The notes under the pieces are model-generated. The model saw only the letters and a program-made list of their open reading frames with translations, did not search any database and was not told the origin of the DNA. 64,000 bases of DNA from a virus (taxonomy: Duplodnaviria; Heunggongvirae; Uroviricota; Caudoviricetes). Location of the stretch: IMG/VR virus record IMGVR_UViG_3300049044_000033, positions 222,796 to 286,795 of that record. One strand, 5' to 3'. Below are positions 16,415 to 64,000 of the stretch, in pieces; within the stretch, counting starts at the first letter, position 1, and every line of letters starts with the position of its first letter. A program made the translations under genes and the position numbers.

Positions 16415-17709
16415 TAGGTAAACTCCAAACCGCTCGCAGTCTTAATCGTCCGCTTGAATCGGTGCATGTCGTTGGGCAGATCCTCAACTGAGGTATCAAT
16501 ATCCGTGCCTACTGTCTCGGTATAGTTCTGAGCGTAGTAGCCGCTACCACGAGAAGCACTTCTAGTTTCAGCTAGGATGTCACCGGTGTCTTTGAATACA
16601 TCTTCCAGGATATGAGTGTATCGTGTGGTCCAGTTGCCCTTGAGATAGTGGGGATGGTGATTCGAACCACCTGGCGCATATTGCTTCTTATACATGTAGT
16701 CGCCTACATCAACAAGAACCATCTGGCCATTGTAGTTCGAGAAGAAAGAACCTTGAACTAGATAGCGCCAGAAATACGTAGGGTTGGTCTTCAAATATAC
16801 TTCATTCTCTTTGCTGAGATTTGAGGTAATATCATCCAAGGTTGTGAGCTCAACTTCTTCCTCGAAGTTGTTCATATCCAGCAGTTCGATGGAGACCCCG
16901 ATAACACCAGCATAATGCTGCCCGGCTTCGTCAAAGCTAACGCCTTCCTTGATCTGGCGGTTAACTTCAGCTTCGGCTTCCTCATGGGTGAGTTCCTTCT
17001 CACCGGAGAATAGTTCAGAAAGCTTTGCCGAACTAGTGGCTTTGAAGAACTTATGAGACGAAATCCCATCTCTACCGGGAGTCTGCATCAAGAATACATG
17101 ACGCTTCTTACCAGTCGTAGAAGCCTGTTTCGTTAGACCGTTGCCATACTTCTCATAAGAAGTAACATAGAACGCACCATAGTAGATGCCTTCGTCGCCG
17201 TTCTGAAGAATCGCAGTATCACCCCGCTTGATATCCTTCATGCTAGCAGACTTGCTAATCCGTTCGGTATTTCGAGCAGCATTGCGATAAACGTCACTGT
17301 CTACGGGAACGAGAATGTTTTCATTGCCCAAACGAGCCCAAATACATTCTTCGAGAATCTCGCCCTTTTCGAGGGTGCAGAAGCTAATGATCTGCGCAAA
17401 ATTGGGAGAGGAAATCTCCAGCTCAAACCCACGAGGGTCTTCAATGCGCCACTTCACATTGCCCTGTCCCCAGCCGTAACCGTGACGAACGCTGCGACCC
17501 ATCTTAAAGCCGATCATAGGCGTGTTGTCATAGGTCTGCGCTTCTTTGGTCTTTGAAGCCCAACCATCTACAGTAGACTTGCGCTTCTCGAAAGCTTTGT
17601 CTGTACCATGTGGTGTCATAAAGCCAAGTGGAACCGAATCCTGGCCCTCTCGACTCTGGAACCCAACATAATGCTTTGCGGGAAACTTGATACTCTTGTT
17701 GTCAGACAA
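16405..17709 (-). CDS. hypothetical protein (434 aa)
   Basis: Long ORF, no motif recognised. Confidence 0.5.
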   Translation of the reverse strand: MSDNKSIKFPAKHYVGFQSREGQDSVPLGFMTPHGTDKAFEKRKSTVDGWASKTKEAQTYDNTPMIGFKMGRSVRHGYGWGQGNVKWRIEDPRGFELEISSPNFAQIISFCTLEKGEILEECIWARLGNENILVPVDSDVYRNAARNTERISKSASMKDIKRGDTAILQNGDEGIYYGAFYVTSYEKYGNGLTKQASTTGKKRHVFLMQTPGRDGISSHKFFKATSSAKLSELFSGEKELTHEEAEAEVNRQIKEGVSFDEAGQHYAGVIGVSIELLDMNNFEEEVELTTLDDITSNLSKENEVYLKTNPTYFWRYLVQGSFFSNYNGQMVLVDVGDYMYKKQYAPGGSNHHPHYLKGNWTTRYTHILEDVFKDTGDILAETRSASRGSGYYAQNYTETVGTDIDTSVEDLPNDMHRFKRTIKTASGLEFTYYR

Positions 17710-17835
17710 ATCTTTTCTCCGGATAACTTCAAGTTCAGTAGCGACGAATTGATAACATTGCTGTTACCTTGCTGGCGCCGCGTTTCCAGCCGATCTAATC
17801 TGAACCTTTAGTCACTCCGGTACTGGTAATCCTTT

Positions 17836-18075
17836 CTAACTTGTCAACTTGATGACTATCGCATAGCGACGTTCAATCTTCTCGATTGCTTCCAAGTAAG
17901 GCTTAGCTGCCTCGTCTGCGGCTTCCTTTTTGGCTTGATTCATCTCGCGCTTGAGATCCTGAATCTGACTCCAAAGAAGACGAGCCGCCCCTTCTTCCGC
18001 TAACGCACCTGCTTCGCCCGTAGAAGACGACATCAATTCCTTACGGACCTTTTCTAGAACCGAACCTGTCTTCAT
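17836..18075 (-). CDS. hypothetical small protein
   Basis: 79 aa, coiled-coil-like. Start overlaps the upstream stop. Confidence 0.4.
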   Translation of the reverse strand: MKTGSVLEKVRKELMSSSTGEAGALAEEGAARLLWSQIQDLKREMNQAKKEAADEAAKPYLEAIEKIERRYAIVIKLTS

Positions 18076-18650
18076 ACAAACTCTGCGTTAACTCCGCATT
18101 GACGGAGGTAGTTGACGCTTGACATGATCTTAGTCTGCCAAGACGATTGCTCAGTGCCTTCTGGCTTCACGGGTAGCGTGATATCTACCCAGTTACCTAC
18201 TGCGCTCTCAACCGCGTGTTTGGCATCAACCAATCCCATACCAGTCACAGCGCGAAGTTCCTTGATCGCATTAATCTTCTGGTACGAGTTATTGTGTGGA
18301 TCAATGCGGATCCGCAGATGACGAACGTTTGGGTATTTGTTGGACACAATGCCGAGAATCAAACGAGCCTTCCAGTCCTTACCCAAGACAGGAACCAGTG
18401 CCTCCATAGCATCAACCGCAGTATCGCGAGTGTAATGCTGCTTGATAGCCCGTAAGAACGCCGCAGAAGCCTCATCGAGGAATGCGAAACCGTCATCGGG
18501 TGTATCTGGATCAATCAGTGGCACAAAAACTCCTTTACCTGCACTCTCATTAGCACCTAGACTACCTGTGTCAACCCTTTCATATAAGTATTGTGCTGGA
18601 AAGAATAGCTTGTTAATATGAAGTATGGTTTGGACGTTTAAACAACGCAT
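18072..18650 (-). CDS. protein with ribosomal bL12 (L7/L12) C-terminal domain
   Basis: C-terminal about 70 aa, KINAIKELRAVTGMGLVDAKHAVESAVG...VKPEGTEQSS, matches the bL12 CTD signature ([25 protein letters not shown]). The N-terminal about 120 aa are unrelated. 5' end uncertain. Confidence 0.6.
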   Translation of the reverse strand: MRCLNVQTILHINKLFFPAQYLYERVDTGSLGANESAGKGVFVPLIDPDTPDDGFAFLDEASAAFLRAIKQHYTRDTAVDAMEALVPVLGKDWKARLILGIVSNKYPNVRHLRIRIDPHNNSYQKINAIKELRAVTGMGLVDAKHAVESAVGNWVDITLPVKPEGTEQSSWQTKIMSSVNYLRQCGVNAEFV

Positions 18651-19218
18651 CCATAGGGCATGCCAAGCCCTAATAGATCGGAGTGCTATTGAGGAGTCTC
18701 AAGTCGAGACACTCAAGCGACCGCTCTACTTTGGCAGATATGCCTATGGCGTAGGGCTTTCTCTCGATCTTAAGAAATGGGGAGATTGGTTCGAAGTCAA
18801 GGATCAAGTTCACGCTTTACTGTCTGATCTTGATTGTGCGATACAGAGCAACCGAAAAACCTACCAATTCAATGTATTCTCCAGCGATCCAAAGGTGCTG
18901 CGTTGTTTGATGAAGTCTAAGGATTTCACAATCAACCACGTTCGCATTGTGGATCAAACTTGTTGGCATCTCAAACTCCCGAAGCCAAAGCCCAAGGGCA
19001 AATTCTACGGAGAGTTCGGATGGCGGTTCGCTTTCAAGGACCGCCATTGGGGAGATAAGCCTGAAAATTTAGAAGTGCTGGAGACACTCTCGGGAAGCTA
19101 TAAACTCGTAGTTCAACCACGATCGTTTCTCTATCTTTCTAATATCTCAGACGTCCTGCTTTTCAAACTCGTCGCGAGCGAGCAACTGTTGAGCTTGGAT
19201 GATAGGCACACCTTGTAG
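18625..19218 (+). CDS. hypothetical protein, distant FKL-motif relative
   Basis: 197 aa. SDVLLFKLVASEQ near the C-terminus. Confidence 0.4.
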   Translation: MVWTFKQRIHRACQALIDRSAIEESQVETLKRPLYFGRYAYGVGLSLDLKKWGDWFEVKDQVHALLSDLDCAIQSNRKTYQFNVFSSDPKVLRCLMKSKDFTINHVRIVDQTCWHLKLPKPKPKGKFYGEFGWRFAFKDRHWGDKPENLEVLETLSGSYKLVVQPRSFLYLSNISDVLLFKLVASEQLLSLDDRHTL

Positions 19219-19286
19219 CCTAGGTTGACAACCTAATGTCCACCAAGTATAAAGAAAGATAGTATCAACAATTCATGAGGTGATGG

Positions 19287-19832
19287 TTGAAATTTTTAGG
19301 AGTGATAGTGCTCCTCTTGTTCTGTATGCTGACGCCAAAACCAGCCGAAGCCGGAACACTATATAGGTACCAAAATCTGCATACTGCGGTTCGTTCGATG
19401 GACACACTCATCCCAGAGGTCCGTCAAGCCAATCGAACCGATCAAGACCAAATGTTGTGCCTTGCGCTCAACATATATCATGAGATTCGTGGGGGGACAC
19501 CGCGTGATCAGTGGGCAGTTGCTTTCGTTACAGTAAATCGCACCAAGCGTAGCGCCTTCAATGCGCGCAATGTTTGTGATGTAGTTTGGGCACGAGGGCA
19601 ATTTAGTTGGACTGTATGGGCAATGAGAGCACAGTTGCCACGCGAGAAGGGTTCATGGATGGAAAGTCAAAGAAAAGCTGTCCTCGTTCTCGCTGGTGAG
19701 AAGATGAATGACCCTACGAACGGCTCAACGCATTTCTACCAGGCAAAGTTGAATCCTGGTTGGGCCCGGCGCTTAGTAGATAAGGTTCGTATCGGAGCAC
19801 ATATGTTTGCGAGACTTCCTGGCAGAAGTTAG
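19287..19832 (+). CDS. secreted SleB-like cell-wall hydrolase (lysis enzyme candidate)
   Basis: Signal peptide MKFLGVIVLLLFCMLTPKPAEA. LCLALNIYHEIRGG...AVAFVTVNR...QFSW...THFY pattern of the Hydrolase_2/SleB domain. Confidence 0.6.
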   Translation: MKFLGVIVLLLFCMLTPKPAEAGTLYRYQNLHTAVRSMDTLIPEVRQANRTDQDQMLCLALNIYHEIRGGTPRDQWAVAFVTVNRTKRSAFNARNVCDVVWARGQFSWTVWAMRAQLPREKGSWMESQRKAVLVLAGEKMNDPTNGSTHFYQAKLNPGWARRLVDKVRIGAHMFARLPGRS

Positions 19833-19862
19833 GGTATGCCCATTAACTCAAAAGAGAAAGGT

Positions 19863-31129: not shown

Positions 31130-32869
31130 TTAGTCTTCTGGGTTAATACCAGCAAGCTTCTGGATCTCAGCCTTCTCGCTAGGAGCAAGAGGAGCCTCGA
31201 TTACCGTCTTAGCTACGCGACGTGCTGCTGGCTTTGCAACCTGCGGAGCACCCACGACTGCCAGACCTTCATCATCCAGAGGAGCAGCAACCGATTCGAC
31301 CAGACCATTAAGGCCACGGCTCAGGTCAACGCCAAGCTCGCGAGCCAGTTCGTCAACAACCGGAACCTGCAGTCGGTAGCCCAGCATCGAGTTGGTCAGG
31401 TCAGTAGCGAGGTTTCCTGTAGGAGCCGACTGACCGCCGAAACCTTCGCCATTGGAATGACCGCCCAGGCCACCCATCTGAACTACGCGGATGCTGTCGA
31501 CCTTCTCCATCGGCTTGGTCATCTTTTCCATGATGGCCGGCAGAGCTTCAATCAGAGCCTTGCGCATGTTGTATGCCATCTGGGCAGAGCTTGTCACGTT
31601 AGCAGCTTCGTTGAGGGCGCGCTGACCTTCCGATTCAACTTCGTAACGCTTTGCGTCAGCGTCGATGAGGCGTTCCTTGGCCTGTGCGCTTGCGTCAGCA
31701 GCAGCCAGTTCAGCTTCAGCACGGATACGAATACCCGCAGCTTCTTCCTGAGCCTTAGTCTCAGCCGCAATAACAGCAACCTTCTGGCTACGTTCTGCCT
31801 GTGCCTGTGCCTCAACAGTCTTCACCGCTTCAGCAGCCTTAACAGCTTCCGCGCGAGCAGCATCAGCAGCCGCACGGGCCTTGGATTCCTGCTCCGACTT
31901 CTCAGCAACCGCAATACGTGACTGCTGGCTAGCAATCTCGAGAGCCTGCGCTGCTTCAGTTTCGGCTACCTGGATAGCGCGCTTCTGTTCGACGCGAGCC
32001 TGCTCAGTAGCACGAGCAGCTTCAATTTCTGCCAGATCAGATTCACGCTTACGGTCGGCGCGGGTCTGGGCCAGTTCAGCTTCCTGCTGGGCACGACGGG
32101 TTTCAACTTCGCGCTCCTGCTCCAGGGTAGCGAATTCGTCCTGCTGCTTAATATCCAGCGAGCGCTTGTTGGCTTCGAAGTTCTTCTGCTCAATCGCAAC
32201 GCGGTTGTCAGCTTCGATGTCGTTACGCTCCTTCTTGCGAGTCTCAGTAACCTGAGTCAGCTTCGCAAGACCTTCAGCGTCGAAGGCGTTGTTGGGGTTG
32301 AAGAATTCAACCGAAGTCTGGTCCAGACCAGTTAGCGACACCGATTCAAGTTCCAGACCGTTCTTGCGCAGGTCTTCAGCAACAGTTGCCTGAACCTTCT
32401 GAACAAACTCAGCGCGCTTTTCGTGAAGGTCCTGCATATCCATACCAGCTGCCGCAGCACGGAGAGCGTCGATGAACTTGCCTTCAATTAGCGAAGCCAG
32501 CTGATCAGGAGCCAAGGTGCGGCGACCAAGCGTCTGTGCCGCAGCCGCAATGCTCTGCTCATCTGGAGCAACACGAACATAGAACTCTGCCTTCACGTCA
32601 ACGCGCAGACGGTCCTTAGTGATCAGCGAATCACGACCCTTACGTTCGACACCGAGACGCAGCGTCTGCATGTTGATGGGGATGGTTTCGTGGAACACTG
32701 GCAGAATAACAGCGCCACCGTCCTTAACGACCTTCTGTCCACCCATACCAGTACGGACAAAAGACTGTTCCTTGCTTGCGCGATGGAACATTTTGGTCAT
32801 GATCAAACCGATGACCATGAAACCTACTAGGAAGACGCCTAGCAGAATACCTGCAAATTGAAGAGTCAC
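31130..32869 (-). CDS. SPFH/band-7 flotillin-like protein (YqiK-like)
   Basis: 579 aa. N-terminal TM, SPFH core (VRTGMGGQKVV...), then a long Ala/Glu-rich repetitive coiled coil (AEAELAAADASAQAKE). Confidence 0.75.
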   Translation of the reverse strand: MTLQFAGILLGVFLVGFMVIGLIMTKMFHRASKEQSFVRTGMGGQKVVKDGGAVILPVFHETIPINMQTLRLGVERKGRDSLITKDRLRVDVKAEFYVRVAPDEQSIAAAAQTLGRRTLAPDQLASLIEGKFIDALRAAAAGMDMQDLHEKRAEFVQKVQATVAEDLRKNGLELESVSLTGLDQTSVEFFNPNNAFDAEGLAKLTQVTETRKKERNDIEADNRVAIEQKNFEANKRSLDIKQQDEFATLEQEREVETRRAQQEAELAQTRADRKRESDLAEIEAARATEQARVEQKRAIQVAETEAAQALEIASQQSRIAVAEKSEQESKARAAADAARAEAVKAAEAVKTVEAQAQAERSQKVAVIAAETKAQEEAAGIRIRAEAELAAADASAQAKERLIDADAKRYEVESEGQRALNEAANVTSSAQMAYNMRKALIEALPAIMEKMTKPMEKVDSIRVVQMGGLGGHSNGEGFGGQSAPTGNLATDLTNSMLGYRLQVPVVDELARELGVDLSRGLNGLVESVAAPLDDEGLAVVGAPQVAKPAARRVAKTVIEAPLAPSEKAEIQKLAGINPED

Positions 32870-34052: not shown

Positions 34053-34124
<72 letters not shown>

Positions 34125-34170
34125 CATGTTGTGTGCTCTCTTTGTAGCACCTACATACCTATTTAGCAAT

Positions 34171-38641: not shown

Positions 38642-40954
38642 TCAAAGCTTACAAGAGTCGCAGTCGTCGTCTTCAAGAAGTTCCAACTGACCTTCCTCAG
38701 TTTCAACCTCAGGAGTATCCTTCAAAAGAGTGATATCTTCCTGACCATCATAGGTGTTGAAGTAGTAGAGGTTCTTACCGCCATACTTGTAGAAAGTTAG
38801 CAAGTCAGTGATCATATCCTTCATCGAGATCTCACGATCAGGATAATGCTCTGGATTGTAGGAAGTGTTGATGCTCGCACTCTGATCCAGGTACTTATTC
38901 AACACACAAGCAATCTTCAGATAACCACGCGGGCTCTTCTGATCCCAAAGGAGTTCATACTTGTTCTTCAGCTTGCCAATCTCAGGAACAACCTGCTTCA
39001 AAACACCGTGCTTGCTAACCTTCTCACTAACTAGCGCACGAACTGGCTCAATGCCGTTTGTGGAGTTCGAGAGCTGTGCAGAAGTCTCAGCTGGCATGAG
39101 TGCCATCAGTGTGGTGTTGCGAATGCTAGTGTTGAGCAACTGAGTGCGAAGCTCTTCCCATGGCATACGGAACTCGGGAGCAACTAGCTCGTTGACTTCT
39201 TCCTTGTAGGTGTCGATAGGCAGAATACCCTTGGAGTATTTGCTCATGTCAGCCCTTGGAGCAGCACCTTTTTCTACTGCCAAATCAGCCGAAGCCTTGA
39301 TCAGATAGTAGGACATGCCTTCCATGTATTCATCAACTAGAGGCAACGCACCGTCATCATACTTCAAGCCATTCTTAGCCAAGAAGTAAGCTAGGTTAAT
39401 GATGCCCACGCCTAAGGGACGAAGTTCCTTGGTCGCAAGTTCAGCTGCCTTAACGGGGTAGTTCTGATAGCTGAGGATCTCATCGAGGAATCGAACAACC
39501 AGCTTGGCTGGCTTTTCGAAATCGTGAGGTGTCTTAACTCGACCCCAATTGAGAGCACTTAAGGTGCAAAGGCTGATACGACCATTAGGGTCATCAAAGC
39601 TCTGCATTGGCACTGTGGGAAGAGTGATTTCCTGACACAGGTTGGACTGTGTGATTGGCGCTAGTTCAGGAATATAAGAGCCATGCGAGTTGGCATGGTC
39701 AATATTCATGAGGTAGATACGACCAGTTTCCTTACGCTCGGTCATGAACGTAACGAACACATCCAAAGCCTTCATGGACTTCTTACGGATCGTTGGATCG
39801 TTCTCATACTGAACGTAGAGTTCGTCGAACTTGTCCTGATCAGCGTAGAAAGCATCTAGGAGACCTGGCACATCCTTAGGGCTGAAGAATGTGATGTTAC
39901 CACCTTCAACGAGACGCTTATACATCATGCGGTTGAAGAGGAAGCTGTAGTCCAACTGACGGATACGATTGAATTCAGTACCCTTGTTGTTCTTCAGAAC
40001 GACCAGATCCTCAAACTCGTAATGCCATAGCGGGAAGTGAACCGTAGCAGCACCACCACGAACGCCACCCTGCGAACAGCTCTTAACTGCTGCTTGCATC
40101 CAGCGCACGAAAGGCAGAAGACCAGTATGCTCTGCATCACCGTTCCTGATCTTGCTACCAAGAGCACGAACACGACCCATGTCAATACCTAGGCCGGCCT
40201 TCTGGCTGATATACTTGATCACGCTGCTATTCGTGGCAACCAGAGAATCCAAGGAGTCATCAGTCGCGATAGTAACGCAAGAGCTGAACTGCTTCTGGGG
40301 AGTCCTCAGTCCTGCCATAATGGGCGTAGGCAAGCTGATGTCAAACTGGCTAACTGCGTCGTAGAAGTCCTTAACATAATCCATACGAGTTTCGCGTGGA
40401 TAAGCCATGAACCCGATTGCGCTGATGAGAACCAGAGCAATCTGTGGAGTCTCGAAGAACTGACCAGAAACGCGATCCTTGACAAGGTATTTGCCGCGCC
40501 ACTGTTCCATGCCCGCATAGGCGATCAAGTCATCGCGCTGATGCTTGACAATCTTCTCAATCTTCTTCCAATCATCTTCGGAATAGTTGTCGAGCAGTTC
40601 CTGGGTATAATGACCCAGCGAAACGTTCTTCTCAACAACCTGCTTGACTGTCCATGGTTCATAGCGGCCATAGACTTCCTTACGAAGCTGATAAGATGCG
40701 AGACGACTCGCAACATACTGATAGTTTGGAGTATCTTCACTGATCAGTTCACTAGCACTCTTAACGAGCAGCTCGTGAATCTTAGTGCTCAAAACACCGT
40801 CTTCCAACTGTAGCTTGGCGCGGAGTTCAATCTCCGAAGGCGAAACGCCTGCAAGTTCTTCACAAGCCCAGAAGACAACCTTATGGATTTTCTCGAGGTC
40901 CAATGCCTCTTTTCGGCCGTCCCGCTTGACGACCATAATTGGTGTGTTGCCCAT
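38642..40954 (-). CDS. nrdA: ribonucleoside-diphosphate reductase alpha subunit (class Ia, with ATP-cone)
   Basis: 770 aa. N-terminal ATP-cone (VVKRDGRKE), catalytic Cys/Asn/Glu region, C-terminal CxxC tail (CDSCKL). Confidence 0.9.
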   Translation of the reverse strand: MGNTPIMVVKRDGRKEALDLEKIHKVVFWACEELAGVSPSEIELRAKLQLEDGVLSTKIHELLVKSASELISEDTPNYQYVASRLASYQLRKEVYGRYEPWTVKQVVEKNVSLGHYTQELLDNYSEDDWKKIEKIVKHQRDDLIAYAGMEQWRGKYLVKDRVSGQFFETPQIALVLISAIGFMAYPRETRMDYVKDFYDAVSQFDISLPTPIMAGLRTPQKQFSSCVTIATDDSLDSLVATNSSVIKYISQKAGLGIDMGRVRALGSKIRNGDAEHTGLLPFVRWMQAAVKSCSQGGVRGGAATVHFPLWHYEFEDLVVLKNNKGTEFNRIRQLDYSFLFNRMMYKRLVEGGNITFFSPKDVPGLLDAFYADQDKFDELYVQYENDPTIRKKSMKALDVFVTFMTERKETGRIYLMNIDHANSHGSYIPELAPITQSNLCQEITLPTVPMQSFDDPNGRISLCTLSALNWGRVKTPHDFEKPAKLVVRFLDEILSYQNYPVKAAELATKELRPLGVGIINLAYFLAKNGLKYDDGALPLVDEYMEGMSYYLIKASADLAVEKGAAPRADMSKYSKGILPIDTYKEEVNELVAPEFRMPWEELRTQLLNTSIRNTTLMALMPAETSAQLSNSTNGIEPVRALVSEKVSKHGVLKQVVPEIGKLKNKYELLWDQKSPRGYLKIACVLNKYLDQSASINTSYNPEHYPDREISMKDMITDLLTFYKYGGKNLYYFNTYDGQEDITLLKDTPEVETEEGQLELLEDDDCDSCKL

Positions 40955-43388: not shown

Positions 43389-45011
43389 TTAACGATCGTA
43401 GGACGTCTTGGTGATCTTCTTGGATTTACCAAATTCCTGACGAGCAGCCTTCTTGAGCTCATCCAAGCTGCCATATTCTAGCTCAGCTTGCTTGATGATT
43501 GCTTCGTGGATTGTTTCGTTATCCTGAAAGTGCTTTTGACATACTGCCCTAATGGCCTGGTAGACACTCGCGTGTGGATTTGCCTTGATGGTTTCACGGA
43601 CAATACGTAGAGCTTGGGCCAACTGTCCTTGGGTCAAATTATGACCAGCAGCTTCCTCTAGTTCTGCCTCTTCCTCTTCAAGTGCTTCAACGAGCCCCTT
43701 AGACAGGGCCTCAAGACGGGCACGAGTTTCATGGACGCTAGGTGTACCCTGGTTCTGATAGGACCCTTGCTGAACGCCTGCGAGCTTCTGAACCTCTTGG
43801 ATCTGCTGAGAGAAGAATACATCATCAGTCGTATCTTCTTCGACCTTTTCTTCCTCTTCGACTTCCTCGTGGAACTGACGGTATTCACTAGTTGGCATAA
43901 CATCAATACCTAGGACGTAAGCGCCTTCCTTAATGTCGACTTCTACTTCTCCAGCAGCAACCTTGGCCGCGATAGAACGAGCAGCGCCATAATCAGCGAA
44001 GCCTTCCTGGATTAGCTGAACCTTAGTACCAGCAGTAGCCCAGCTTGGATTCTCAGCCGTGCCAATGTTTTCCATCATCTGGGTGTGGACCACCACAACA
44101 AAATTATTGGCCTCCATTACAGGCTCCTCCTCTGTTTCTTCTAGTGATTCCTCGATATCAGCCAATGGCATGTTATCGTTGTCGTAATCATCACGGATCT
44201 CTTCATTAAGACTCTCGTGGATTTCATCTTCAATATCAGTTGCGAGCGCATCTTGTTCCATCACATAGTTGAGAACTAACTGATGAAACTCTGCTTCGCC
44301 GAGTATGCCATTTTCCTGCATATATGGCGTATTGACATAATGTCCATAAGCACGGGAGAGCACGGTCTCAATTGGAAAGCCCTCATTATACCCTGACCAA
44401 TCCAAGCATTCTACCAAGTCACCCTTGTAGATTACATCACCGATAGACTGAAGACCTTCTGAAAGACTCTCGCTGATCTTCTTAGCAATCATAATTGGAC
44501 TCTTGATCCCAGTAGTGATCAGACCCTTCTTCTTGAATTCGCTGTAGGTCTTTTCGTCAGTCAACATCGCGCTGCTATTCGAGGCAGAGAATGCAATGAC
44601 CTGAAAGTGTTCCATATCGAACTCAGTGCAGCCACCATACATGACATTTGGCTTAAAGGTAACTTCCTTGAATGCCTTGATAGCTTCTCCTTTGCTCGAA
44701 TAACCAAGCATGACTTTGTCTTCGTCAAACTTGCTTCCATCAACAGTCAGCTGATGCATCACATAAACCCTAGCATCTTTCTTGGGGTTCTTCCTCAGAT
44801 AACAATCGAGGTGTTCTCCGTCAGGGCTATGAGTGCCTTTGATATAGCCATAGTGGGCTGGGATCTTTATAGCCCATTCCTCACCGGTCTTTTTGTTTTT
44901 GCCGCGGCGATAACCGTCGGCGGGCACCTCAACTGAGATATCTAGGCCTTCAAAATGTTGACGGCTGTGAAGTTTTGCCTCATTGAGGCTCTTGAAAAAT
45001 TCCATGCTCAC
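43389..45011 (-). CDS. protein with N-terminal inorganic-pyrophosphatase-like domain and long acidic C-terminal extension
   Basis: IPAHYGYIKGTHSPDGEHLDCYL and VYVMHQLTVDGSKFDEDKVMLGY parallel the family I PPase NYGYI..T...DGDPLDVLV and V..M.D..G.D.K motifs. Total 540 aa. Confidence 0.4.
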   Translation of the reverse strand: MSMEFFKSLNEAKLHSRQHFEGLDISVEVPADGYRRGKNKKTGEEWAIKIPAHYGYIKGTHSPDGEHLDCYLRKNPKKDARVYVMHQLTVDGSKFDEDKVMLGYSSKGEAIKAFKEVTFKPNVMYGGCTEFDMEHFQVIAFSASNSSAMLTDEKTYSEFKKKGLITTGIKSPIMIAKKISESLSEGLQSIGDVIYKGDLVECLDWSGYNEGFPIETVLSRAYGHYVNTPYMQENGILGEAEFHQLVLNYVMEQDALATDIEDEIHESLNEEIRDDYDNDNMPLADIEESLEETEEEPVMEANNFVVVVHTQMMENIGTAENPSWATAGTKVQLIQEGFADYGAARSIAAKVAAGEVEVDIKEGAYVLGIDVMPTSEYRQFHEEVEEEEKVEEDTTDDVFFSQQIQEVQKLAGVQQGSYQNQGTPSVHETRARLEALSKGLVEALEEEEAELEEAAGHNLTQGQLAQALRIVRETIKANPHASVYQAIRAVCQKHFQDNETIHEAIIKQAELEYGSLDELKKAARQEFGKSKKITKTSYDR

Positions 45012-51025: not shown

Positions 51026-51271
51026 ATGGGCGATCTATTTAAAAGTGTAGTCGAAATGATCGCGAAGGGCGAAGCAGGTTCACTGACGGCTATCCTTCTA
51101 GCTATCATCGGGGTTCTGGGATGGTATTGCTACCGTCTTATGAAGCAGGTGGAAAAGAAGGACGAGAAGATCTACAAGATCATCGACGAATATTCCAAGA
51201 ACAACATTACCATCACTGATGCGTTGAATGGTCTAAAGACTGTGTTGATCGAGATTAAGGCAAAGCTCTAA
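51026..51271 (+). CDS. small membrane protein
   Basis: 81 aa, one TM helix (SLTAILLAIIGVLGWYCY). AAGGAG RBS 8 nt upstream. Confidence 0.45.
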   Translation: MGDLFKSVVEMIAKGEAGSLTAILLAIIGVLGWYCYRLMKQVEKKDEKIYKIIDEYSKNNITITDALNGLKTVLIEIKAKL

Positions 51272-52938
51272 TGTGGTTCAATAAGGATAAAAAGGCTAAG
51301 AAGCAGCAAAGGGAAGCAGTTCTAAAAGCTGCGATGGAATCTAGCGAAGCTTTGGAAAAGGCCGCTAAGGGGACCATGAATCTAGCCGAAGATGTTACTA
51401 AGACTCTTCAGAGCCGAATTGATGATTATGCCCAGCAGATTGACCAAACAGCCCGCCTCCTAAGTGATGCCCTCATGCTTGTTGATGATCACGGAATCAT
51501 TGAAAGCTTCAACCAAGCAGCTGAAAGCATGTTTGGTCATGCTCGTCGTTCAATTAGAGGCAAGAATCTTTCTACCCTTTTTGAATTCCAACAAGACACA
51601 AAGATCACCCCAGACTTCATGGAAGAGCTGATGAACAAGGTGAGCGAGAATGATCTCTCTGCTACTGTTCATTATGAAGACTTTATGGGAGTCCGCAAGG
51701 ATGACACGAAGTTCTATGTTGATGTAGGCGTAAGCAAAATCATCCGTAGCAATTCAAAAGTCAAGTATATCATCCTGGTTCGTGACGTAAGCCAAAAGGT
51801 CATGAATAGCAAGATGCTAGAAGAATTAGCTCAGAGGAACCAAGAACTCCTAGCAACTATCGATGCTTCAAATACTGGGTTCATCATTATTAGTCCTGAT
51901 GGTAGTGACTTCAAGATCAACTTCGTGAATGAAGGCTTTAGTCGCCTAACTGGTTATTCGAGAACTCAAATACGTAACATGAGTCTAATGGACCTTCTTG
52001 GCATAGAGCAGACATTCTGGTCAGTGCGCCGCAGTCTATTGGAGCACGTAGAAGCACGTCATGAAGTTCAGCTAGAAATCGGCAACTGTCAGACTATTTG
52101 GTTCGACGTTCAGATTACACCGGTCTTTCAGAATGGTGTGTTGAACCAGTGGATTCTAGTATTCTATGATACTACCGCACTCAAGAAGGCCTATCACGAC
52201 CTACGCAAAAGCGAGTCGCACTTTAAGGCATTCAGTGACGCTAGCTCTGAAAGTATGTTGATTCACAACTTTGGCCAGGTGATTGATTGGAATGATCGAC
52301 TCAATAAGCTGACCGGCTACTCTGACGAAGAGATCGAGCAACTCGGTCCACTAGATTTGGTTCATCCTTTAGAGCGTGAAAAGATTCGTGACGAAGTTCA
52401 TCTTCTAGGTAGTAACAGCTACGAAACCCTCTTCATGACCAAGCAGGGAGACGTTCGAGAAGTAGCAGTGAATAGTCGTTCAATTGAATGGGAAAATGCT
52501 GACGCTCGTATTGCTATCGTGCGTGATGTAACTGAATACAAGGATATCGAGACTCAGCTAAAAACAGCTAGAGAGCGTTACCGCACTGTCATTGATAACA
52601 CAATCGACATGGTGATCTGCTTTAATGCCAATTTCGAGATCACTTTTAGCAACCAGACCTTCCGAGACTACTATGATGTAGAACTCGAAGATATTAATGG
52701 ATTCTCCCTCCTAGAGATTATCCCAGAGCCTGATCACCGCAAGTTCATGGAGTATATGTTGAGCATTACTCCTGATATGCAAGTTCGTCGTGGAATTCAT
52801 CGCGTTCAGCGTCACGATGAGGTTAGAATGCAGGATTGGATCGATCGTGGTATCTTTGATGAAGATGGCACCTTGATCGAAATCCAAAGCATTGCTCGAG
52901 ATGTAACGAGTCTACTTCCTCCCCCAAATCAGACTTGA
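51271..52938 (+). CDS. multi-PAS domain protein without recognisable output domain
   Basis: 555 aa. About four PAS-like modules (for example LMLVDDHGIIESFNQAAESMFGH, FIIISPDGSDFKINFVNEGFSRLTGYS, MLIHNFGQVIDWNDRLNKLTGYS, MVICFNANFEITFSNQTFRDYY). ATG overlaps the upstream stop. Confidence 0.65.
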   Translation: MWFNKDKKAKKQQREAVLKAAMESSEALEKAAKGTMNLAEDVTKTLQSRIDDYAQQIDQTARLLSDALMLVDDHGIIESFNQAAESMFGHARRSIRGKNLSTLFEFQQDTKITPDFMEELMNKVSENDLSATVHYEDFMGVRKDDTKFYVDVGVSKIIRSNSKVKYIILVRDVSQKVMNSKMLEELAQRNQELLATIDASNTGFIIISPDGSDFKINFVNEGFSRLTGYSRTQIRNMSLMDLLGIEQTFWSVRRSLLEHVEARHEVQLEIGNCQTIWFDVQITPVFQNGVLNQWILVFYDTTALKKAYHDLRKSESHFKAFSDASSESMLIHNFGQVIDWNDRLNKLTGYSDEEIEQLGPLDLVHPLEREKIRDEVHLLGSNSYETLFMTKQGDVREVAVNSRSIEWENADARIAIVRDVTEYKDIETQLKTARERYRTVIDNTIDMVICFNANFEITFSNQTFRDYYDVELEDINGFSLLEIIPEPDHRKFMEYMLSITPDMQVRRGIHRVQRHDEVRMQDWIDRGIFDEDGTLIEIQSIARDVTSLLPPPNQT

Positions 52939-57341: not shown

Positions 57342-58865
57342 TTACCTACGGAGGTTCTTTGCAAGATTCCGTAGATTAGCGCCATCTGCTTGAGCCTTAC
57401 CTACATCACCTGCTGCTACTGGAGCAGAATGTTTCTGTAATATGGGATTATTAGCCGCTGGTCCCTTGAGGGCAGTTGGATCTTTCTCTTGATTATACGA
57501 GGTGCCGATATTCTTAGGCACTACCGTTGAGATGTTTGCCTTCAGACCTTGTGTAATTGCCGAAACCCCTGAGCTGCGCCCTTCTGCCATTTCAGCAGGT
57601 GCGTCAGTGATCCTAAGGGTGTTGGGATCAATCTTCAAGAAGATCTTCTGACCTACACCAGAGGATGAACGCGTCTTGAGGAACTGAATCTGGTACTCAC
57701 CACGTTCCTTCATAGCAGCCGTAGTCAAGATGGCCATCACGTTATCTGCCGTGTTGATCTTCGAAATACCACCTGCAATGTGACTTGCGTCAAAGTCTTG
57801 TTCCTGAATAGAAGCACGATTAAGCTGAGAAGCTGTCGCGCACAAGATGTTCCATTCAACTGCTAGGGCTCGTAGTTCTTCAGAGGTGAACTTATCCTTG
57901 ATGAACTGATCCGAAACGTTGATCTTACCACTATTGGGATGCATCAAGTCCAAGTAGTCGACCACGATTGCGTCGGGACGAGCACCGGTCTGGATCTCAA
58001 ATTCCTGCAAGTAGGCTCGGATATCATTAGCAGTCGTACCAGCCATGGGCAGCTTCTTAATCTGAAGCTTGCCCCACTTATGAGCCTTACCACCTTGCTT
58101 GCGCATCATACCGAGGCGCATCGCAACTTCATCAATGTCTTTGAAGATCTGCTTAGTGGGCATCTCAGTGATCATTGCGTCATAACGCAAGCCCACCAGT
58201 TCTTCAGAAAGTTCCATTGTGATGTAGATAACGCTAAGACCCATCTGAACCCAGTTGAGTGCTAGGTTCTGAAGGAAGAGCGATTTACCCGTACCAGGTC
58301 CACCACAGAAGAAGCTGATTTCACCGCGGTTAAAACCACCATACAGCTTGGAGTCAATATCCTTCCAACCCGTCGGAGTAGTGTCAGTCTTATCCCTCAT
58401 GCGCTCAAGGCGCTCCTTGGGATCCATGAAGTAATCCGTACCGAGTTCAGTCTGTAGACTGATCAGCATGTTCTCTTTGGACCGGCGTTCAAGCTCTGCG
58501 TAGTCACCCTTGGAGATCAACTGTGGACCTTCAAAGACAAGGGCTTCCATGGCTTTGTGTCGACAAAAATCCGCAATTGTGTTTAGGAACCATTCAACGT
58601 GATTCGATTGAACATTGGGGATCGTAGGAGTATCAACACCTGTCTCTGCCTTTACCTGTTCAGGTGTGGGAAGAGCACGGTATTCGTTTGTGAACTTCTG
58701 GATATAACGAACAACCGGGCGAAGGCGCTCATTCCAGTAATCGGGCTTTACAATATTCTGACAGCGAACGTATGCGCTGTTATCGGTAAGCATGAACTGA
58801 ATGAGGACCTTCTGGACCTCTTCGCTATATTCCTTGAGCTCTGTTTCTTCTTTTCTTTGGCTCAC
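57342..58865 (-). CDS. DnaB-family replicative DNA helicase (T4 gp41-like)
   Basis: 507 aa. Walker A FFCGGPGTGKS, RecA-like DnaB C-terminal domain motifs. Confidence 0.85.
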   Translation of the reverse strand: MSQRKEETELKEYSEEVQKVLIQFMLTDNSAYVRCQNIVKPDYWNERLRPVVRYIQKFTNEYRALPTPEQVKAETGVDTPTIPNVQSNHVEWFLNTIADFCRHKAMEALVFEGPQLISKGDYAELERRSKENMLISLQTELGTDYFMDPKERLERMRDKTDTTPTGWKDIDSKLYGGFNRGEISFFCGGPGTGKSLFLQNLALNWVQMGLSVIYITMELSEELVGLRYDAMITEMPTKQIFKDIDEVAMRLGMMRKQGGKAHKWGKLQIKKLPMAGTTANDIRAYLQEFEIQTGARPDAIVVDYLDLMHPNSGKINVSDQFIKDKFTSEELRALAVEWNILCATASQLNRASIQEQDFDASHIAGGISKINTADNVMAILTTAAMKERGEYQIQFLKTRSSSGVGQKIFLKIDPNTLRITDAPAEMAEGRSSGVSAITQGLKANISTVVPKNIGTSYNQEKDPTALKGPAANNPILQKHSAPVAAGDVGKAQADGANLRNLAKNLRR

Positions 58866-58881: not shown

Positions 58882-59913
58882 TTATATTAGACGTTGCCGC
58901 CTTACACCTATTTCTAGCTTATTCTTTGTCATGGCATCAATAATTGACCACACCGTGTAGAGTTTTCCGTAAGCTTTTACGGCATCCGCAGCGTCCTTGA
59001 TGCCCTGGTCCCAGCGAGGGAAGCTAACGTGCCAGCCTTCACTGAGCGCAACATCAACAAGCTTACCGCCTTGTTCTACGCGATCGGGAACAACGATGAT
59101 CTTTTTGCCAGTTTGATTAAGCCAGCGTGCCTGGTCAGGCATGACTTTGTCACCTAGCATCGCTATACCATTTATCGCAATACCGTCGAAGGGACCTTCA
59201 CAGATGAAGATATATTCCCAGTCATTCTTGATTGCGTCGGTATTGAATAGATAGCGAGGCTGAACCTCACTGAAGTACCGCATAGGTGACGAATTGTCGA
59301 TCACACGAGCAGTCCAACCTACGACTTCGTTTTCCCAGTAGAAGGGAATAATGATTCGTCGGTTGAGACTGTTCGCTTTGTTTGGTGTCCAGTAGAAATC
59401 CCCACCTAAGAGGATGTCATCTCCTCGACTAGACAAATAGGTCAGTGCGTCTTGGAAATCCGGATCTTCCAGTCCATGCTCTAACCAATACGAGATCGGC
59501 TTGGCATCCTTAGGCAAAGCTACTGACTTGAACGTCAGTTTCTCTAGGAGCTCACGAGGGGCTAACGAGATAGCTTCGCCCTTGTTGAGCATATCCTTTC
59601 GGAGTTCATCAACATAGAAGCCCAGCCAGTCGAGTTCCTCCTTGGGCATTCCCAGCCACTGAAAATAGCTGCGCCATTTAGAAGTTAATCGACTGCCCGG
59701 AGACCAAGACGTCTTAAATCCACAGTTGAAGCAGGAGATTGTTGTTCGACCATCAAAGTCAAACATCAAGCCTCCACGCTTCTTAGTATCAGGACGAGAC
59801 TGACCGTTGTGAATACAGCATGGTCCATTAAACCTCATCCACCTACTAGGGGTGACTTGCGCCCTAGATATGTGTTTGATCAACGCATCGTAGACAAGGG
59901 TTAAATGGGACAT
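58882..59913 (-). CDS. DNA primase (zinc-binding plus TOPRIM, gp61/DnaG-like)
   Basis: N-terminal Cys cluster CCIHNGQ...CFNCGFK and TOPRIM IFICEGPFDGIAI. Adjacent to and coupled with the helicase gene. Confidence 0.8.
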   Translation of the reverse strand: MSHLTLVYDALIKHISRAQVTPSRWMRFNGPCCIHNGQSRPDTKKRGGLMFDFDGRTTISCFNCGFKTSWSPGSRLTSKWRSYFQWLGMPKEELDWLGFYVDELRKDMLNKGEAISLAPRELLEKLTFKSVALPKDAKPISYWLEHGLEDPDFQDALTYLSSRGDDILLGGDFYWTPNKANSLNRRIIIPFYWENEVVGWTARVIDNSSPMRYFSEVQPRYLFNTDAIKNDWEYIFICEGPFDGIAINGIAMLGDKVMPDQARWLNQTGKKIIVVPDRVEQGGKLVDVALSEGWHVSFPRWDQGIKDAADAVKAYGKLYTVWSIIDAMTKNKLEIGVRRQRLI

Positions 59914-61616
59914 TAGAAATCAAACAATCCATTGTTGACAATCTGAGCTTCTTCCTTTTCCTTAGGATTAGCCAAAATAGTCATCTTCTCTTCAGTTTTA
60001 ATAGCCTTAACGACATTTCGGTGAACCTTAATGTCAGGCATATCGAAGTCCACTAGAACCTGCGTTCCCTTTTCAGCATTGTCGCTTGCTAGGTAATTAA
60101 GGACCTTACGATTCCTTTCCAGGTAATCGTAATAGTTCTCAACCTGAAAGGCATCTTCCACTACACCCTTAAGCTCTAGCAATTGAGCTGGAACTTTAGC
60201 AGGATCACCTTCGTCGTAGAGATCCTGAGACTCATAAACCCCTTCCAAGTGAACTTGGACGTTGTGATTCATGAGCATCGCGTAGGTCACAACGTCCCAT
60301 GTCGATGTGAACTTAGGATCCACATTAACACAGATGTCACCCATTGTCAGCTTTTCGCCGATTGCGGTGCGAACAAAACGTGAACCTTCCACACCATCTA
60401 GACGTGCATGAAACATCTCTTCCAAGACATTAAGGAAAGGACGATCAGCCTCTGGCCCACGTGGAGGAAGAGGAATCTTCTCACCATTTGCATCAAGCTT
60501 GTATTTGACTCGACCTTTACCCGTACCTAGCATCTCATGACCAATGAGCTCAACTTCGTGCTCATCATCTTCATTGATCTTACCCATGTAGGTATTAGTT
60601 GGCAAGTAATGACGTCCGTCTAACTTCTCGCCCTGAATACTCCAGCTTTCCTTATTCAAGTTGTAGCCGAGGAAGACTTTTCCATAAGCTGCTAGAGTGA
60701 ATGGAGAGCTCACATCATAGGAGATAGTGAAGTTTGGATTTATGCTCTCACGTACCTTGCGCTGGATAGTTGTGTAGACACAACCATGCTGGAACTTACC
60801 AACACCTAAGAAGTGCATCCAATCCTTGTCCTGGAGAAGACCATCTTCCCGCATATCCAAAATACGTCCAAGAGCCATCTCAAAGTTTTCCTTGTGATGA
60901 CTTGCTAGCGACCAACCCTCAAAGGGATAGTGCTTGACATTTTCATACCAGTTCTTGGATTCGTGCTTGTTACGACCCTGCACAACATTCAAAAACTTTG
61001 TAGCCCCCGGAACCCGGTTAGCCACAAAATAATCATTGTTGATCAAAGTCTGTAACATACAGGTGTAGAAGAGACGATCGTTAATATCGTTGATATCTCC
61101 ACCGTTCTTAATGATCAGAGCATCAAGTGCGTCTTTGTTTCCAGAATCAACAACTGCTGGATCCAAAGGATGTTCTAGACGCTTCAAGTGCTGGTCAATA
61201 TTACCAAGACCGATACCACCAGTAGGAAAGTCGAGAACCATTGACCAATCACAGTTGGCTTCCATCCAGCGCATCATCTTCTCGCGGGTCTTATCACCCT
61301 CGAACTTGATTGCACCAGTCTGGATCTGGAAGCCTCCCGAGTCACCCAACACTGTGGTCGGAGCGCGATCTCGTCCAGTAACCATATCCTTGCGATGCGT
61401 CACAGCATTGCCCTTAGCTGCCTGTCCTGCAGAATACAGAGCACAAGGTAGGTAGAACAAAGAAGTGGTTGGATCAAAGAAGTTTAGTTCTTTGCGAGGG
61501 ATAGGTGGTTCCCTCTTAGGGTTTTCCGCATTCACATAGCGGACATACATTTCCGATATGGCCGGAGTGAATCGCGCATAATCGCGATAACGCTTGGAAT
61601 AATCAATTCCGGACAT
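59913..61616 (-). CDS. tRNA-guanine-transglycosylase (TGT) superfamily protein, DpdA-like DNA transglycosylase candidate
   Basis: 567 aa. VLGDSGGFQIQ matches the TGT catalytic DSGGFQ and HFLGVGKFQHG matches LxGVGxP. Sits beside the replication genes. Confidence 0.55.
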   Translation of the reverse strand: MSGIDYSKRYRDYARFTPAISEMYVRYVNAENPKREPPIPRKELNFFDPTTSLFYLPCALYSAGQAAKGNAVTHRKDMVTGRDRAPTTVLGDSGGFQIQTGAIKFEGDKTREKMMRWMEANCDWSMVLDFPTGGIGLGNIDQHLKRLEHPLDPAVVDSGNKDALDALIIKNGGDINDINDRLFYTCMLQTLINNDYFVANRVPGATKFLNVVQGRNKHESKNWYENVKHYPFEGWSLASHHKENFEMALGRILDMREDGLLQDKDWMHFLGVGKFQHGCVYTTIQRKVRESINPNFTISYDVSSPFTLAAYGKVFLGYNLNKESWSIQGEKLDGRHYLPTNTYMGKINEDDEHEVELIGHEMLGTGKGRVKYKLDANGEKIPLPPRGPEADRPFLNVLEEMFHARLDGVEGSRFVRTAIGEKLTMGDICVNVDPKFTSTWDVVTYAMLMNHNVQVHLEGVYESQDLYDEGDPAKVPAQLLELKGVVEDAFQVENYYDYLERNRKVLNYLASDNAEKGTQVLVDFDMPDIKVHRNVVKAIKTEEKMTILANPKEKEEAQIVNNGLFDF

Positions 61617-61672: not shown

Positions 61673-62593
61673 TCAATTTCTAAACGCTATTTTGGTGATT
61701 TTACCTAGGTCAGCAGGAAGGGGCTGAGGCATTTCATCTAACTGTTCAAAGCGGTTATAAACCCAGACACGAACCCACATTAAGTTTGCTTCAAAGGTAA
61801 AAGCTTCAGTAGAGGTTTGATGGTCATATTCTTTGATCTCAATATCAAACCAGTTCGATTCAGTAGGAGTGCTTGGTTCCAAACTACCTTGAATTCTGAT
61901 CTTACCAGAGAAGTTATCTAAGGTGGCTACTAAGGTGTGAACCCCGGAGGTGTTATTCCTCTGGAGAGAACCCTGTAGAGCAGACGAAACACGAATAGAT
62001 GTATCTACACCGTCGATCTCTTCACTTGTTTGCGACAGAGCTTCGTAGGGAATCTCAATGCTAGGTTGGGGATCAAAGATCGGCCCTTGTGCTAACTCGA
62101 AGAAGCCAGTCTGACTCTCGAAGGTATCCATATAGAGCAAGTGAGTGCTGCCATCAACATTGGTGACTTGAACGCTATAGGAATAGGTCTGTAGAAACCA
62201 GTCGGCCGTAACATCAGGTAGAAGCACTAGCTTACAGATACCCTTAGCTTCGTTAATGACTTTAAGGTCTTGCTGATGCAAGAGGGTATTGGTCTTCTGA
62301 TCAAATAGATTGATCTTAGCCGATCTACCCATCATATTAACAGGCTTGCGATCTGCATTCCTAACCACAAACTCGACGTCATTTTGGACGTCCTTGAAGA
62401 CACGGAAATCGTTGCTATTCATAGGGAGGTTCCAATTCACGACACCGCTGGGAAATTCCCTCAGGGTCAGTTCAACTCGTCGCTTTTTATCGTAGAGAAA
62501 AACTGTCATATGGTCCCCTAGGAAGCCCAAACTAGGATAGGCTAAATACCCCGTATTTATAGCAATATGTAGGTCGTTATAGTGTTGCCTCAA
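61673..62593 (-). CDS. hypothetical protein (306 aa)
   Basis: ORF. Confidence 0.45.
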   Translation of the reverse strand: MRQHYNDLHIAINTGYLAYPSLGFLGDHMTVFLYDKKRRVELTLREFPSGVVNWNLPMNSNDFRVFKDVQNDVEFVVRNADRKPVNMMGRSAKINLFDQKTNTLLHQQDLKVINEAKGICKLVLLPDVTADWFLQTYSYSVQVTNVDGSTHLLYMDTFESQTGFFELAQGPIFDPQPSIEIPYEALSQTSEEIDGVDTSIRVSSALQGSLQRNNTSGVHTLVATLDNFSGKIRIQGSLEPSTPTESNWFDIEIKEYDHQTSTEAFTFEANLMWVRVWVYNRFEQLDEMPQPLPADLGKITKIAFRN

Positions 62594-62944
62594 TTAGAGA
62601 AATTTCCATTTTTGACCCTAGGTCGATACCTTGATCAAGAATACCTTGGTATCGTGGGCAACAGTGATAACCAAATCACATCAATGTATATCTACAACAT
62701 GTTGCCAGACGAAGAGCACAAGAAGCTCTTTCTTCAGCTAGGTGACGAATGGTGGTGGGAAACGAATAGAGAAATGCCTATCAACGTTACCTTAAAGGAT
62801 CGTTGGACTGTATTTCGCCCATACTTGAAAACATTCATAACAAGCGACTTTCAGATCATCCAGGGGCCTTGTGTGAGCCTGGATACCGTTATGGTCAAGC
62901 GAGTTCGCCGTCGTCAGATTCAGCTTGTTCGTAAGCAGGACTAA
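62582..62944 (+). CDS. hypothetical protein (120 aa)
   Basis: ORF on the opposite strand in a divergent intergenic context. Confidence 0.35.
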   Translation: MLPQLEKFPFLTLGRYLDQEYLGIVGNSDNQITSMYIYNMLPDEEHKKLFLQLGDEWWWETNREMPINVTLKDRWTVFRPYLKTFITSDFQIIQGPCVSLDTVMVKRVRRRQIQLVRKQD

Positions 62945-63357
62945 AAGGACAGTTTGAACCTCAAGGCATCTGAAGAATCTTCAAACGTCCAATAAATTTT
63001 CAGATCATGAAGATGTTCCATTGTTATCGTGAAACTCCAACCACTGTTCGTATTGGCTGCTATCCAATTCACTCGCTCTTCAAAGAGCGAGTAAAGTTGA
63101 CGAACAGTATCGAGGTGATCAAAGTTAACAGTCGTGATCACTAAATTGTCTTGAGCCTCTTCCCTGAAATGAATGAAACGATTACAATTTAGACTACGTT
63201 CGTCTTCCTTCAGCTTCAGCATCTTTACGCTGTAGAGCGTCTGAGAATGTGGATAGAGTGTTGAAATAACATCGACCGCTAGCCAGGGTCCTTCTGGCCA
63301 CTGAGTGCTTATTACCTTCTCATACCGTCGGTTCTGAACCATTGGCCTTTTCCACAA
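62941..63357 (-). CDS. FKL-family related protein (dispersed copy)
   Basis: 138 aa. C-terminus SDALRFKLSF. Confidence 0.4.
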   Translation of the reverse strand: MWKRPMVQNRRYEKVISTQWPEGPWLAVDVISTLYPHSQTLYSVKMLKLKEDERSLNCNRFIHFREEAQDNLVITTVNFDHLDTVRQLYSLFEERVNWIAANTNSGWSFTITMEHLHDLKIYWTFEDSSDALRFKLSF

Positions 63358-63934
63358 GAAGGTTTAGCTGAACCACAATCACAAGCGCATAACTCAGGGC
63401 ATGAGCTCTCTTAAAGCCATAGAGACTATCGTCACCGGCTTGCCAGATCTCTGCTTTGATCTCGTCCCACTCTCTACCTATAAGGTGCTTCTTACGCGGG
63501 CGGAGAAGTGCTAGGAAGATTGCTAGGTCATCTAGAGTTTGTGGCTTATAGGCTTCGATGAGATCATAGGTAGGGATACCGTCGATCGTACCACCTAGCT
63601 GGAAGAGCTGCTCACAAATATCTTTGTCATAGAGCAAATCCCACAAGGGTGGCCTAGCGACTAGTTGATTAAGATGCTCTTCATCCCTGACATCTTTGTA
63701 GACGTTTAGGTTTAGGAAATCCAGCTTGAAATAGCCTCGCTCCTCAGCTTCCTCGTAGGGAAGGCTAGAAAACCCCGTAAGAGGATCCTGAGGGATGGCT
63801 TGGAAATATACACCCACGTTATGTCGGCGTAGCTCTCCGTTCTGTATCATGCTCGCAGGGATAGATAGAAGCCCCTTAAGAGCTTCTTCTCGATTAGCAA
63901 AATCGATGTCAACGTCAGGGACAAACTTGCCCAT
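63320..63934 (-). CDS. compact protein carrying DnaE (Pol III alpha)-like palm/finger motifs
   Basis: VPDVDIDF (compare DnaE PDIDIDF), GYFKLDFLNL (compare GLLKMDFLGL) and YGFKRAHALSYALV (compare YGFNKSHAAAYAL), in the same order but within 204 aa. The upstream end may extend beyond the window. Confidence 0.45.
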   Translation of the reverse strand: MGKFVPDVDIDFANREEALKGLLSIPASMIQNGELRRHNVGVYFQAIPQDPLTGFSSLPYEEAEERGYFKLDFLNLNVYKDVRDEEHLNQLVARPPLWDLLYDKDICEQLFQLGGTIDGIPTYDLIEAYKPQTLDDLAIFLALLRPRKKHLIGREWDEIKAEIWQAGDDSLYGFKRAHALSYALVIVVQLNLLVEKANGSEPTV

Positions 63935-64000
63935 TAGATAAACCTTAGCTTGAATAGAGCCGCGAGGGCGGGCATAGTCTGAAAATCGAGAACGACAATG

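Follow-up and report, generated by a model that had tools for sequence, protein, structure and literature searches.

The gene at 63320..63934 on the minus strand of the window (the whole stretch of 64,000 nucleotides analyzed here, taken from the Caudoviricetes record IMGVR_UViG_3300049044_000033) is a complete coding sequence of 204 aa plus a stop codon, and we read its product as the C-terminal unit (C-unit) of a split minimal polymerase of the DNA polymerase III alpha type. In the protein, palm strands that bear the three carboxylates are combined with a finger segment that has been cut short. With a probability that we put at roughly 85%, it is the complete C-terminal subunit of the two-piece minimal C-family polymerase of a group of jumbo phages; the N-terminal subunit (N-unit) is encoded elsewhere, and the two units would jointly make one accessory polymerase. 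The window comes from a jumbo phage with a genome of about 460 kb that has not been cultivated, kin to Phosso, Atu_ph07, PA5oct and the Rak2/121Q group.

In the translation of the window, the C-unit ORF starts with ATG on the minus strand. The frame is open from this ATG upstream as far as base 64000, and for this reason a longer gene had been suspected: an earlier note, made from the letters of the window, took the ORF for a possible C-terminal part of a larger gene cut by the window edge. The C-unit protein was found on three public contigs by exact-sequence look-up. The Logan contig SRR35211493_183700 (L006; 145,469 bp), which carries the gene, is identical to the window across all 10,681 overlapping bases and runs 9.9 kb past the edge. 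On this contig the codon directly past base 64000 is an in-frame stop, and there is no start codon earlier than the ATG. The starts of 60 homologues differ from that of the C-unit by no more than a few residues. With its 204 aa the gene is thus whole. A Shine-Dalgarno-like candidate, AAGG, can be read at 63943..63946 (minus strand), 8 nt upstream of the ATG.

The window edge does cut a different gene. The 3′ end of an 87-aa ORF lies upstream of the C-unit at 63934..64000 (minus strand, in another frame), and the whole ORF is found on L006 at 9738..10001. Its TAA overlaps the ATG of the C-unit (TAATG), an arrangement that suggests translational coupling. This ORF has neither a PHROG match nor similarity to the N-unit and is not a piece of DnaE. 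We give next to no credence to the idea that the C-unit forms the C-terminal end of a longer gene of the DnaE type running past base 64000, or that the rest lies in the adjoining upstream ORF. The open frame between the ATG and the edge spoke for it; against it stand the stop codon directly past the edge, the common start of the homologues, the lack of N-unit similarity in the upstream ORFs, and an N-unit that sits on a different contig from this sample. Upstream there is no PHP/palm continuation, and the 10 kb beyond the edge are free of any piece of DnaE.

On the other side, an extra ORF of 133–138 aa lies at 62941..63357 (minus strand), directly downstream of the C-unit; in a public gene call it shares about 23 nt with the 3′ end of the C-unit gene. 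This ORF, with a weak PHROG match (2.5e-4), sits between the C-unit and an opposite-strand gene of family phrog_11637. Phosso, PAC2 and Atu_ph07 differ from the window here, since in these phages the phrog_11637 gene directly follows the C-unit and the extra ORF is absent.

Three DnaE motifs occur in the one ORF of 204 aa and in the order that had been reported from the letters; the strand (minus) is added here. The first, PDVDIDF (aa 6–12; 63899..63919, minus strand), aligns to ‘MPDIDIDF’ at 413–420 of DnaE1 of M. tuberculosis. The second, GYFKLDFLNL (aa 67–76; 63707..63736, minus strand), aligns to ‘GLLKMDFLGL’ of DnaE1 and includes D72, encoded at 63719..63721. The third is the finger-domain motif YGFKRAHALSYAL (aa 172–184; 63383..63421, minus strand), the equivalent of ‘YAFNKSHAAGY’ in DnaE. 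We take D7 and D9 to be the first two catalytic aspartates, corresponding to D401 and D403 of E. coli, and D72 corresponds to the third, D555. On this E. coli numbering the three carboxylates that bind metal are D7, D9, and D72. An alignment of 58 C-unit sequences has 28 invariant columns, including D7, D9, D11, R15, K70, D72, H178, and Y182; G67 and L74 are likewise invariant (58–60 homologues). The finger motifs RP-x-K and YxFK-x-H-x3-Y are retained. Thus, conservation extends to the Mg2+-binding carboxylates (DxD plus the later D) as well as to the finger motifs that bind the template, and all of these are collinear with residues 412–424, 565–663, and 774–788 of DnaE1.

Searches with the single C-unit sequence gave sub-threshold or no matches to the known polymerase families. 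The finger domain PF17657 was matched at 13.5 bits (E 0.045), below its cut-off of 22; phmmer against PDB sequences gave an E of 0.8, and a search of NCBIfam gave no match. Such searches are too weak to decide the matter, so family profiles and fold searches were needed. The phage family phrog_11778 (‘DNA polymerase’, 197 positions) was matched end to end at 3e-64, with residues 7–196 of the C-unit on profile positions 8–194, and the family of full-length DnaE-type proteins, phrog_405 (1190 positions), at 9.6e-7. PF17657 was matched by 15 of the 58 family members, the best at 2.7e-7. The profile of the C-unit family matched M. tuberculosis DnaE1 at 1.3e-4 in four collinear segments: positions 4–16 on DnaE1 412–424, 56–141 on 565–663, 165–179 on 774–788, and a weak fourth segment, 43–86 on 484–528, that overlaps the others.

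From the family alignment, AlphaFold2 produced a confident model (mean pLDDT 91, pTM 0.75), and a Foldseek search of the PDB with this model returned seven DnaE chains at the top with probabilities of 0.89–0.99. The C-unit has the palm and finger fold of the C-family. An hhalign comparison of the C-unit profile with the DnaE of Enterococcus phage 9183 gave a 25-column stretch around YxFxxxH at 5% probability, a match that is uninformative because the template was one divergent sequence. The similarity to DnaE that the earlier note had proposed is thus borne out by profile and fold searches and extends beyond the short motifs. The same note held that its reading would fall if a palm continuation upstream and DnaE similarity in profile searches were both missing; the continuation is absent, yet the profile and fold similarity is there.

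The tblastn search of 50,697 phage records with the C-unit revealed 96 records, every one of them a jumbo phage. Sinorhizobium phage Phosso is the nearest cultured phage (53% identity), followed by Agrobacterium phage Atu_ph07 (49%), the PA5oct-like Pseudomonas phages (46%) and the 121Q/PBECO4/Rak2-like phages (41%). The homologue is a separate CDS in Phosso (191 aa, XYS97594.1) and in PAC2 (200 aa, XAI94078.1). In Atu_ph07 it is gp074, annotated as 164 aa, and the match starts upstream of the annotated start. Some recent GenBank phage records label the homologue ‘DnaE-like DNA polymerase III alpha’. A large protein database holds 3077 homologues, with lengths of 188–218 aa among the 120 listed, and public data contain more than 3000 clusters of the C-unit and about 2000 of the N-unit. 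Across 185,579 prokaryotic species, with one genome each, the C-unit was found at only 16 loci (L170–L185), all of them on contigs of metagenome-assembled genomes (MAGs). These MAGs were assigned to Gammaproteobacteria, Marinimicrobia, Elusimicrobia, a haloarchaeon, Pacearchaeota, and others. Since the taxa belong to unrelated phyla and include archaea, the 16 loci are probably contigs of jumbo phages mis-binned into the MAGs. The C-unit is a conserved, phage-restricted protein.

It had also been suggested that the ORF is a relic, that is, the decaying and functionless remainder of a once full-length DnaE. The length of 204 aa, compared with about 1160 aa for DnaE, and the sub-threshold matches of the single sequence to Pfam and PDB would suit such a relic. 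However, the 3077 homologues are of one length class among those listed, the 28 invariant columns of the sampled alignment include the three catalytic aspartates, the phage family profile is matched end to end, and the predicted compact fold is confident. Synteny is also kept across phages in which the protein is only 41–53% identical. A relic is therefore very improbable.

The neighborhood of the C-unit includes replication genes. A DnaB-like helicase (57342..58865, minus strand) and a primase (58882..59913, minus strand) lie downstream of it, and a phrog_11637 ORF lies on the opposite strand at 62582..62944 (plus strand); all three were assigned by PHROG matches. The order C-unit, opposite-strand phrog_11637 ORF, virion protein, primase and DnaB is shared by the window, Phosso, Atu_ph07 and the PA5oct-like phages, and it was read in PAC2 as well. 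Between the primase and the virion protein, the window has a 567-aa ORF (59913..61616, minus strand) with no match in Pfam, PHROGs, NCBIfam or PDB sequences. It contains LGDSGGFQIQTG, a stretch similar to DSGGFQ, the signature of tRNA-guanine transglycosylase and of DpdA-type DNA-modifying enzymes. Phosso has a 549-aa hypothetical protein at this position.

A number of other genes were identified in the window. The type II topoisomerase is split into GyrB-like and ParC/GyrA-like genes at 8247..10118 and 14400..15749 (both plus strand), about 4 kb apart with small ORFs between them. The large subunit of a class I-type ribonucleotide reductase with an ATP-cone is encoded at 38642..40954 (minus strand). 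A 555-aa protein (51271..52938, plus strand) consists almost wholly of PAS domains, at least four of them (PAS_9, 2.2e-41); a sensor-like protein of this sort is unusual in the genome of a phage. Two further genes on the minus strand encode a 579-aa protein with SPFH/Band-7 and flotillin domains (31130..32869) and a 540-aa protein (43389..45011) with an N-terminal inorganic pyrophosphatase domain (InPase, PF18823; 2.1e-31) followed by about 400 aa that match no assigned domain. The single tRNA gene, for tRNA-Thr (GGT), lies at 34053..34125 (minus strand). A jumbo-phage origin of the window is supported by a 462-kb contig, by best matches to Phosso, Atu_ph07 and PA5oct, and by the genes for DnaB, primase, topoisomerase II and ribonucleotide reductase.

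The partner of the C-unit can be recognized in Atu_ph07 as gp316, a protein of 177 aa annotated as ‘DNA polymerase’ that ends in ...VGRGSCVSSYILYIIGVHKVNSIKYDLDFSEFLE. This C-terminal stretch equals the helix-loop with GRGS that binds the nucleotide in the palm of DnaE. The N-unit ends in ...EFLK, exactly where DnaE goes on with ‘PDxDxDF’, and the C-unit starts with MGKFVPDVDIDF. The break thus lies inside the catalytic palm, because the C-unit’s PDxDxDF picks up where the N-unit ends. Comparison of the N-unit with a full-length phage DnaE by hhalign gave a probability of 96%.

No N-unit was found when the window and the next 10 kb on L006 were searched. The N-unit of the window’s genome is P0184, a protein of 178 aa that matches PF07733 at 38.6 bits (cut-off 23.9). 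A search with Atu_ph07 gp316 returned 33 proteins, P0184 not among them; it was retrieved with a closer query from IMG/VR locus L088. One JGI contig that carries P0184 is 462,455 bp long, and so is the longest contig bearing the C-unit. From these two figures we infer that both are encoded on one molecule. P0184 occurs, too, on a contig of 406,756 bp from JGI sample 3300071358. Four further N/C pairs were found on contigs of equal size (468,011, 470,746, 287,948, and 958,096 bp). P0184 is also present on SRR35211493_41827, a 134-kb contig of the same Logan sample as L006.

The two genes are far apart in the cultured phages: about 224 kb in Phosso (N-unit at 97,210, C-unit at 321,331), about 44 kb in PA5oct (187,546 and 143,938), and about 31 kb in 121Q (44,455 and 13,327). 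Among 160 loci on viral contigs, 80 for each unit and read with flanks of 2–3 kb, there was no case of adjacency or fusion of the units. The N-unit has a conserved neighborhood of its own, with MazG, a GroES-like gene, a clamp-loader ATPase and PhoH. Of the proposal that the window holds part of a split DnaE-like polymerase, both the kinship with DnaE and the split hold, the latter through the separate P0184; truncation by the window edge does not.

The cultured relatives also encode a family B polymerase. In Atu_ph07 it is formed by two adjacent ORFs, gp276 and gp277 (16878..19847 of locus L003): the exonuclease and the first part of the polymerase domain are in a 565-aa ORF, and the remainder of that domain is in a 417-aa ORF. 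Orthologues were identified in Phosso and in PA5oct-like and Rak2-like phages. At least 80% of gp277 was covered in 95 phage records, essentially the same set as the carriers of the C-unit. The question raised earlier, whether the genome also encodes such an enzyme, can be answered in part: it is present in the cultured relatives, and none is found among the 10 largest ORFs of the window, which include the ribonucleotide reductase, the split topoisomerase II, the flotillin and the PAS protein.

The N-unit holds the GRGS loop and the helical part of the palm, the C-unit holds the three carboxylates and the finger motifs, and both units are conserved and co-occur. The two may associate to rebuild one nucleotidyltransferase active site of the Pol-beta-like type within about 380 aa. 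In such a site the N-unit would grip the triphosphate of the incoming dNTP, and the C-unit would bind two Mg2+ ions and contact the primer-template. Without thumb, PHP, clamp-binding or OB parts, the split enzyme alone would probably be poorly processive. It would probably assist the family B replicase as an accessory enzyme, whether by extending primers, by synthesizing one strand or in repair, a role that fits the conserved position of the C-unit beside the primase-helicase genes. The position of the N-unit near the clamp loader gives further supporting context.

Other activities have to be considered for the same architecture. The two units could form an active Pol-beta-fold nucleotidyltransferase serving neither replication nor repair, for example in template-independent tailing, synthesis of a nucleotide signal or handling of modified bases, or the C-unit could work alone as a DNA- or metal-binding factor. 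The loss of the thumb, clamp-binding, PHP and OB parts would be in keeping with this, as would the location of the two genes in separate genome regions, where co-expression is not required, and the presence of a family B replicase in these phages. However, RP-x-K, YxFK-x-H and Y182 are kept invariant, and in DnaE these elements contact the template and the incoming dNTP. The C-unit is always in the primase-helicase neighborhood, and the N-unit near a clamp loader. A lone C-unit would have an incomplete site, lacking the triphosphate-binding half, since the GRGS loop is in the N-unit only. We consider these activities unlikely and prefer an accessory DNA polymerase.

A more specific role for the accessory polymerase can be suggested by analogy. 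In Bacillus subtilis, DnaE hands off to PolC. The heterodimer of about 380 aa might similarly be a hand-off enzyme of the replisome, extending primers from the adjacent primase-helicase and then passing them on to the family B replicase, and it might be the smallest functional C-family DNA polymerase; we regard this as speculative, with the odds well against it.

A split minimal DNA polymerase III alpha has been described in group 2.2 jumbo phages (Iyer et al., 2021; Viruses 13:63, PMC7824862). It has been noted that it accompanies a family B polymerase, and cooperation of the two in one-strand synthesis or repair has been suggested; it has further been proposed that the ancestral core of the replicase of bacteria might survive in the split minimal polymerase (Iyer et al., 2021). 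In the genome papers on Atu_ph07, Sharanji and AP-J-162, ‘DNA polymerase III’ subunits are merely listed, and the omics paper on PA5oct makes no gene-specific statement on the expression of the two units. No biochemical or genetic study of any member was found in the literature. The system is thus not of a new kind, being already published (PMC7824862) and having its own PHROG family. Its value lies in a large and strictly conserved family rather than in the copy of the window. With a natural cut through the active site, the enzyme would be the smallest core of the C-family, and it coexists with a family B replicase. Experiments on how small the catalytic unit of the bacterial replicase can be would find a tractable system here. 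It also poses the question of why a phage keeps two unrelated polymerases.

Compared with bacterial DnaE and PolC (PDB structures 5lew, 7pu7, 5fku, 2hpi, and 3f2b), the split enzyme is strongly reduced. Bacterial DnaE is one chain of about 1160 aa, whereas the two phage pieces total about 380 aa and are without the PHP domain, the thumb, the beta-clamp-binding region, the OB fold, and the tau-binding region of DnaE/PolC. No Pfam match to a PHP domain was obtained in the N-unit. In E. coli DnaE the thumb occupies about residues 433–510. The interval from the DxD strand to the third aspartate, thumb included, is about 140 residues in DnaE1 and about 40 in the C-unit, where a beta-hairpin (aa 25–43) is found. 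In the fingers, RP-x-K and YxFxxxH are about 110 residues apart in DnaE1 and about 25 in the C-unit. The parts beyond the fingers are present in DnaE1 but absent from the C-unit, which ends some 20 residues past YxFxxxH. The palm of DnaE is contiguous, while that of the split enzyme is broken between ‘...FLN’ and ‘PDxDxDF’. The C-unit scores below the DnaE cut-offs of Pfam and NCBIfam; the N-unit exceeds the PF07733 cut-off but reaches only about 26 bits against the more than 400 of the NCBIfam DnaE equivalog cut-offs. Unlike bacterial DnaE/PolC, the split family is found on phage contigs only.

Full-length DnaE-type polymerases of phages (phrog_405) are known from Enterococcus phage 9183 (gp053, 1284 aa) and from Streptomyces phage Lika; group 3.2 jumbo phages, phage G among them, have such enzymes too. 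Like the split enzyme they are phage-encoded C-family polymerases, but they are host-like single chains with a PHP domain and serve as the sole replicase, whereas the split version is minimal, comes in two pieces and is accompanied by a family B polymerase. The closest counterparts are the group 2.2 systems. The group 2.2 C-unit (phrog_11778) and that of the window are alike in length (about 200 aa), motifs, invariant residues, and primase/DnaB neighborhood; in both cases the N-terminal unit is separate and distant, and the genome is that of a jumbo phage. A 6-residue insertion, TIDGIP (aa 114–119), is present in the window’s C-unit and its closest metagenomic relatives, and there is no difference in kind from the group 2.2 proteins. 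The C-unit of the window fits the description of Iyer et al. (2021) on every testable point and is of a kind known since 2021.
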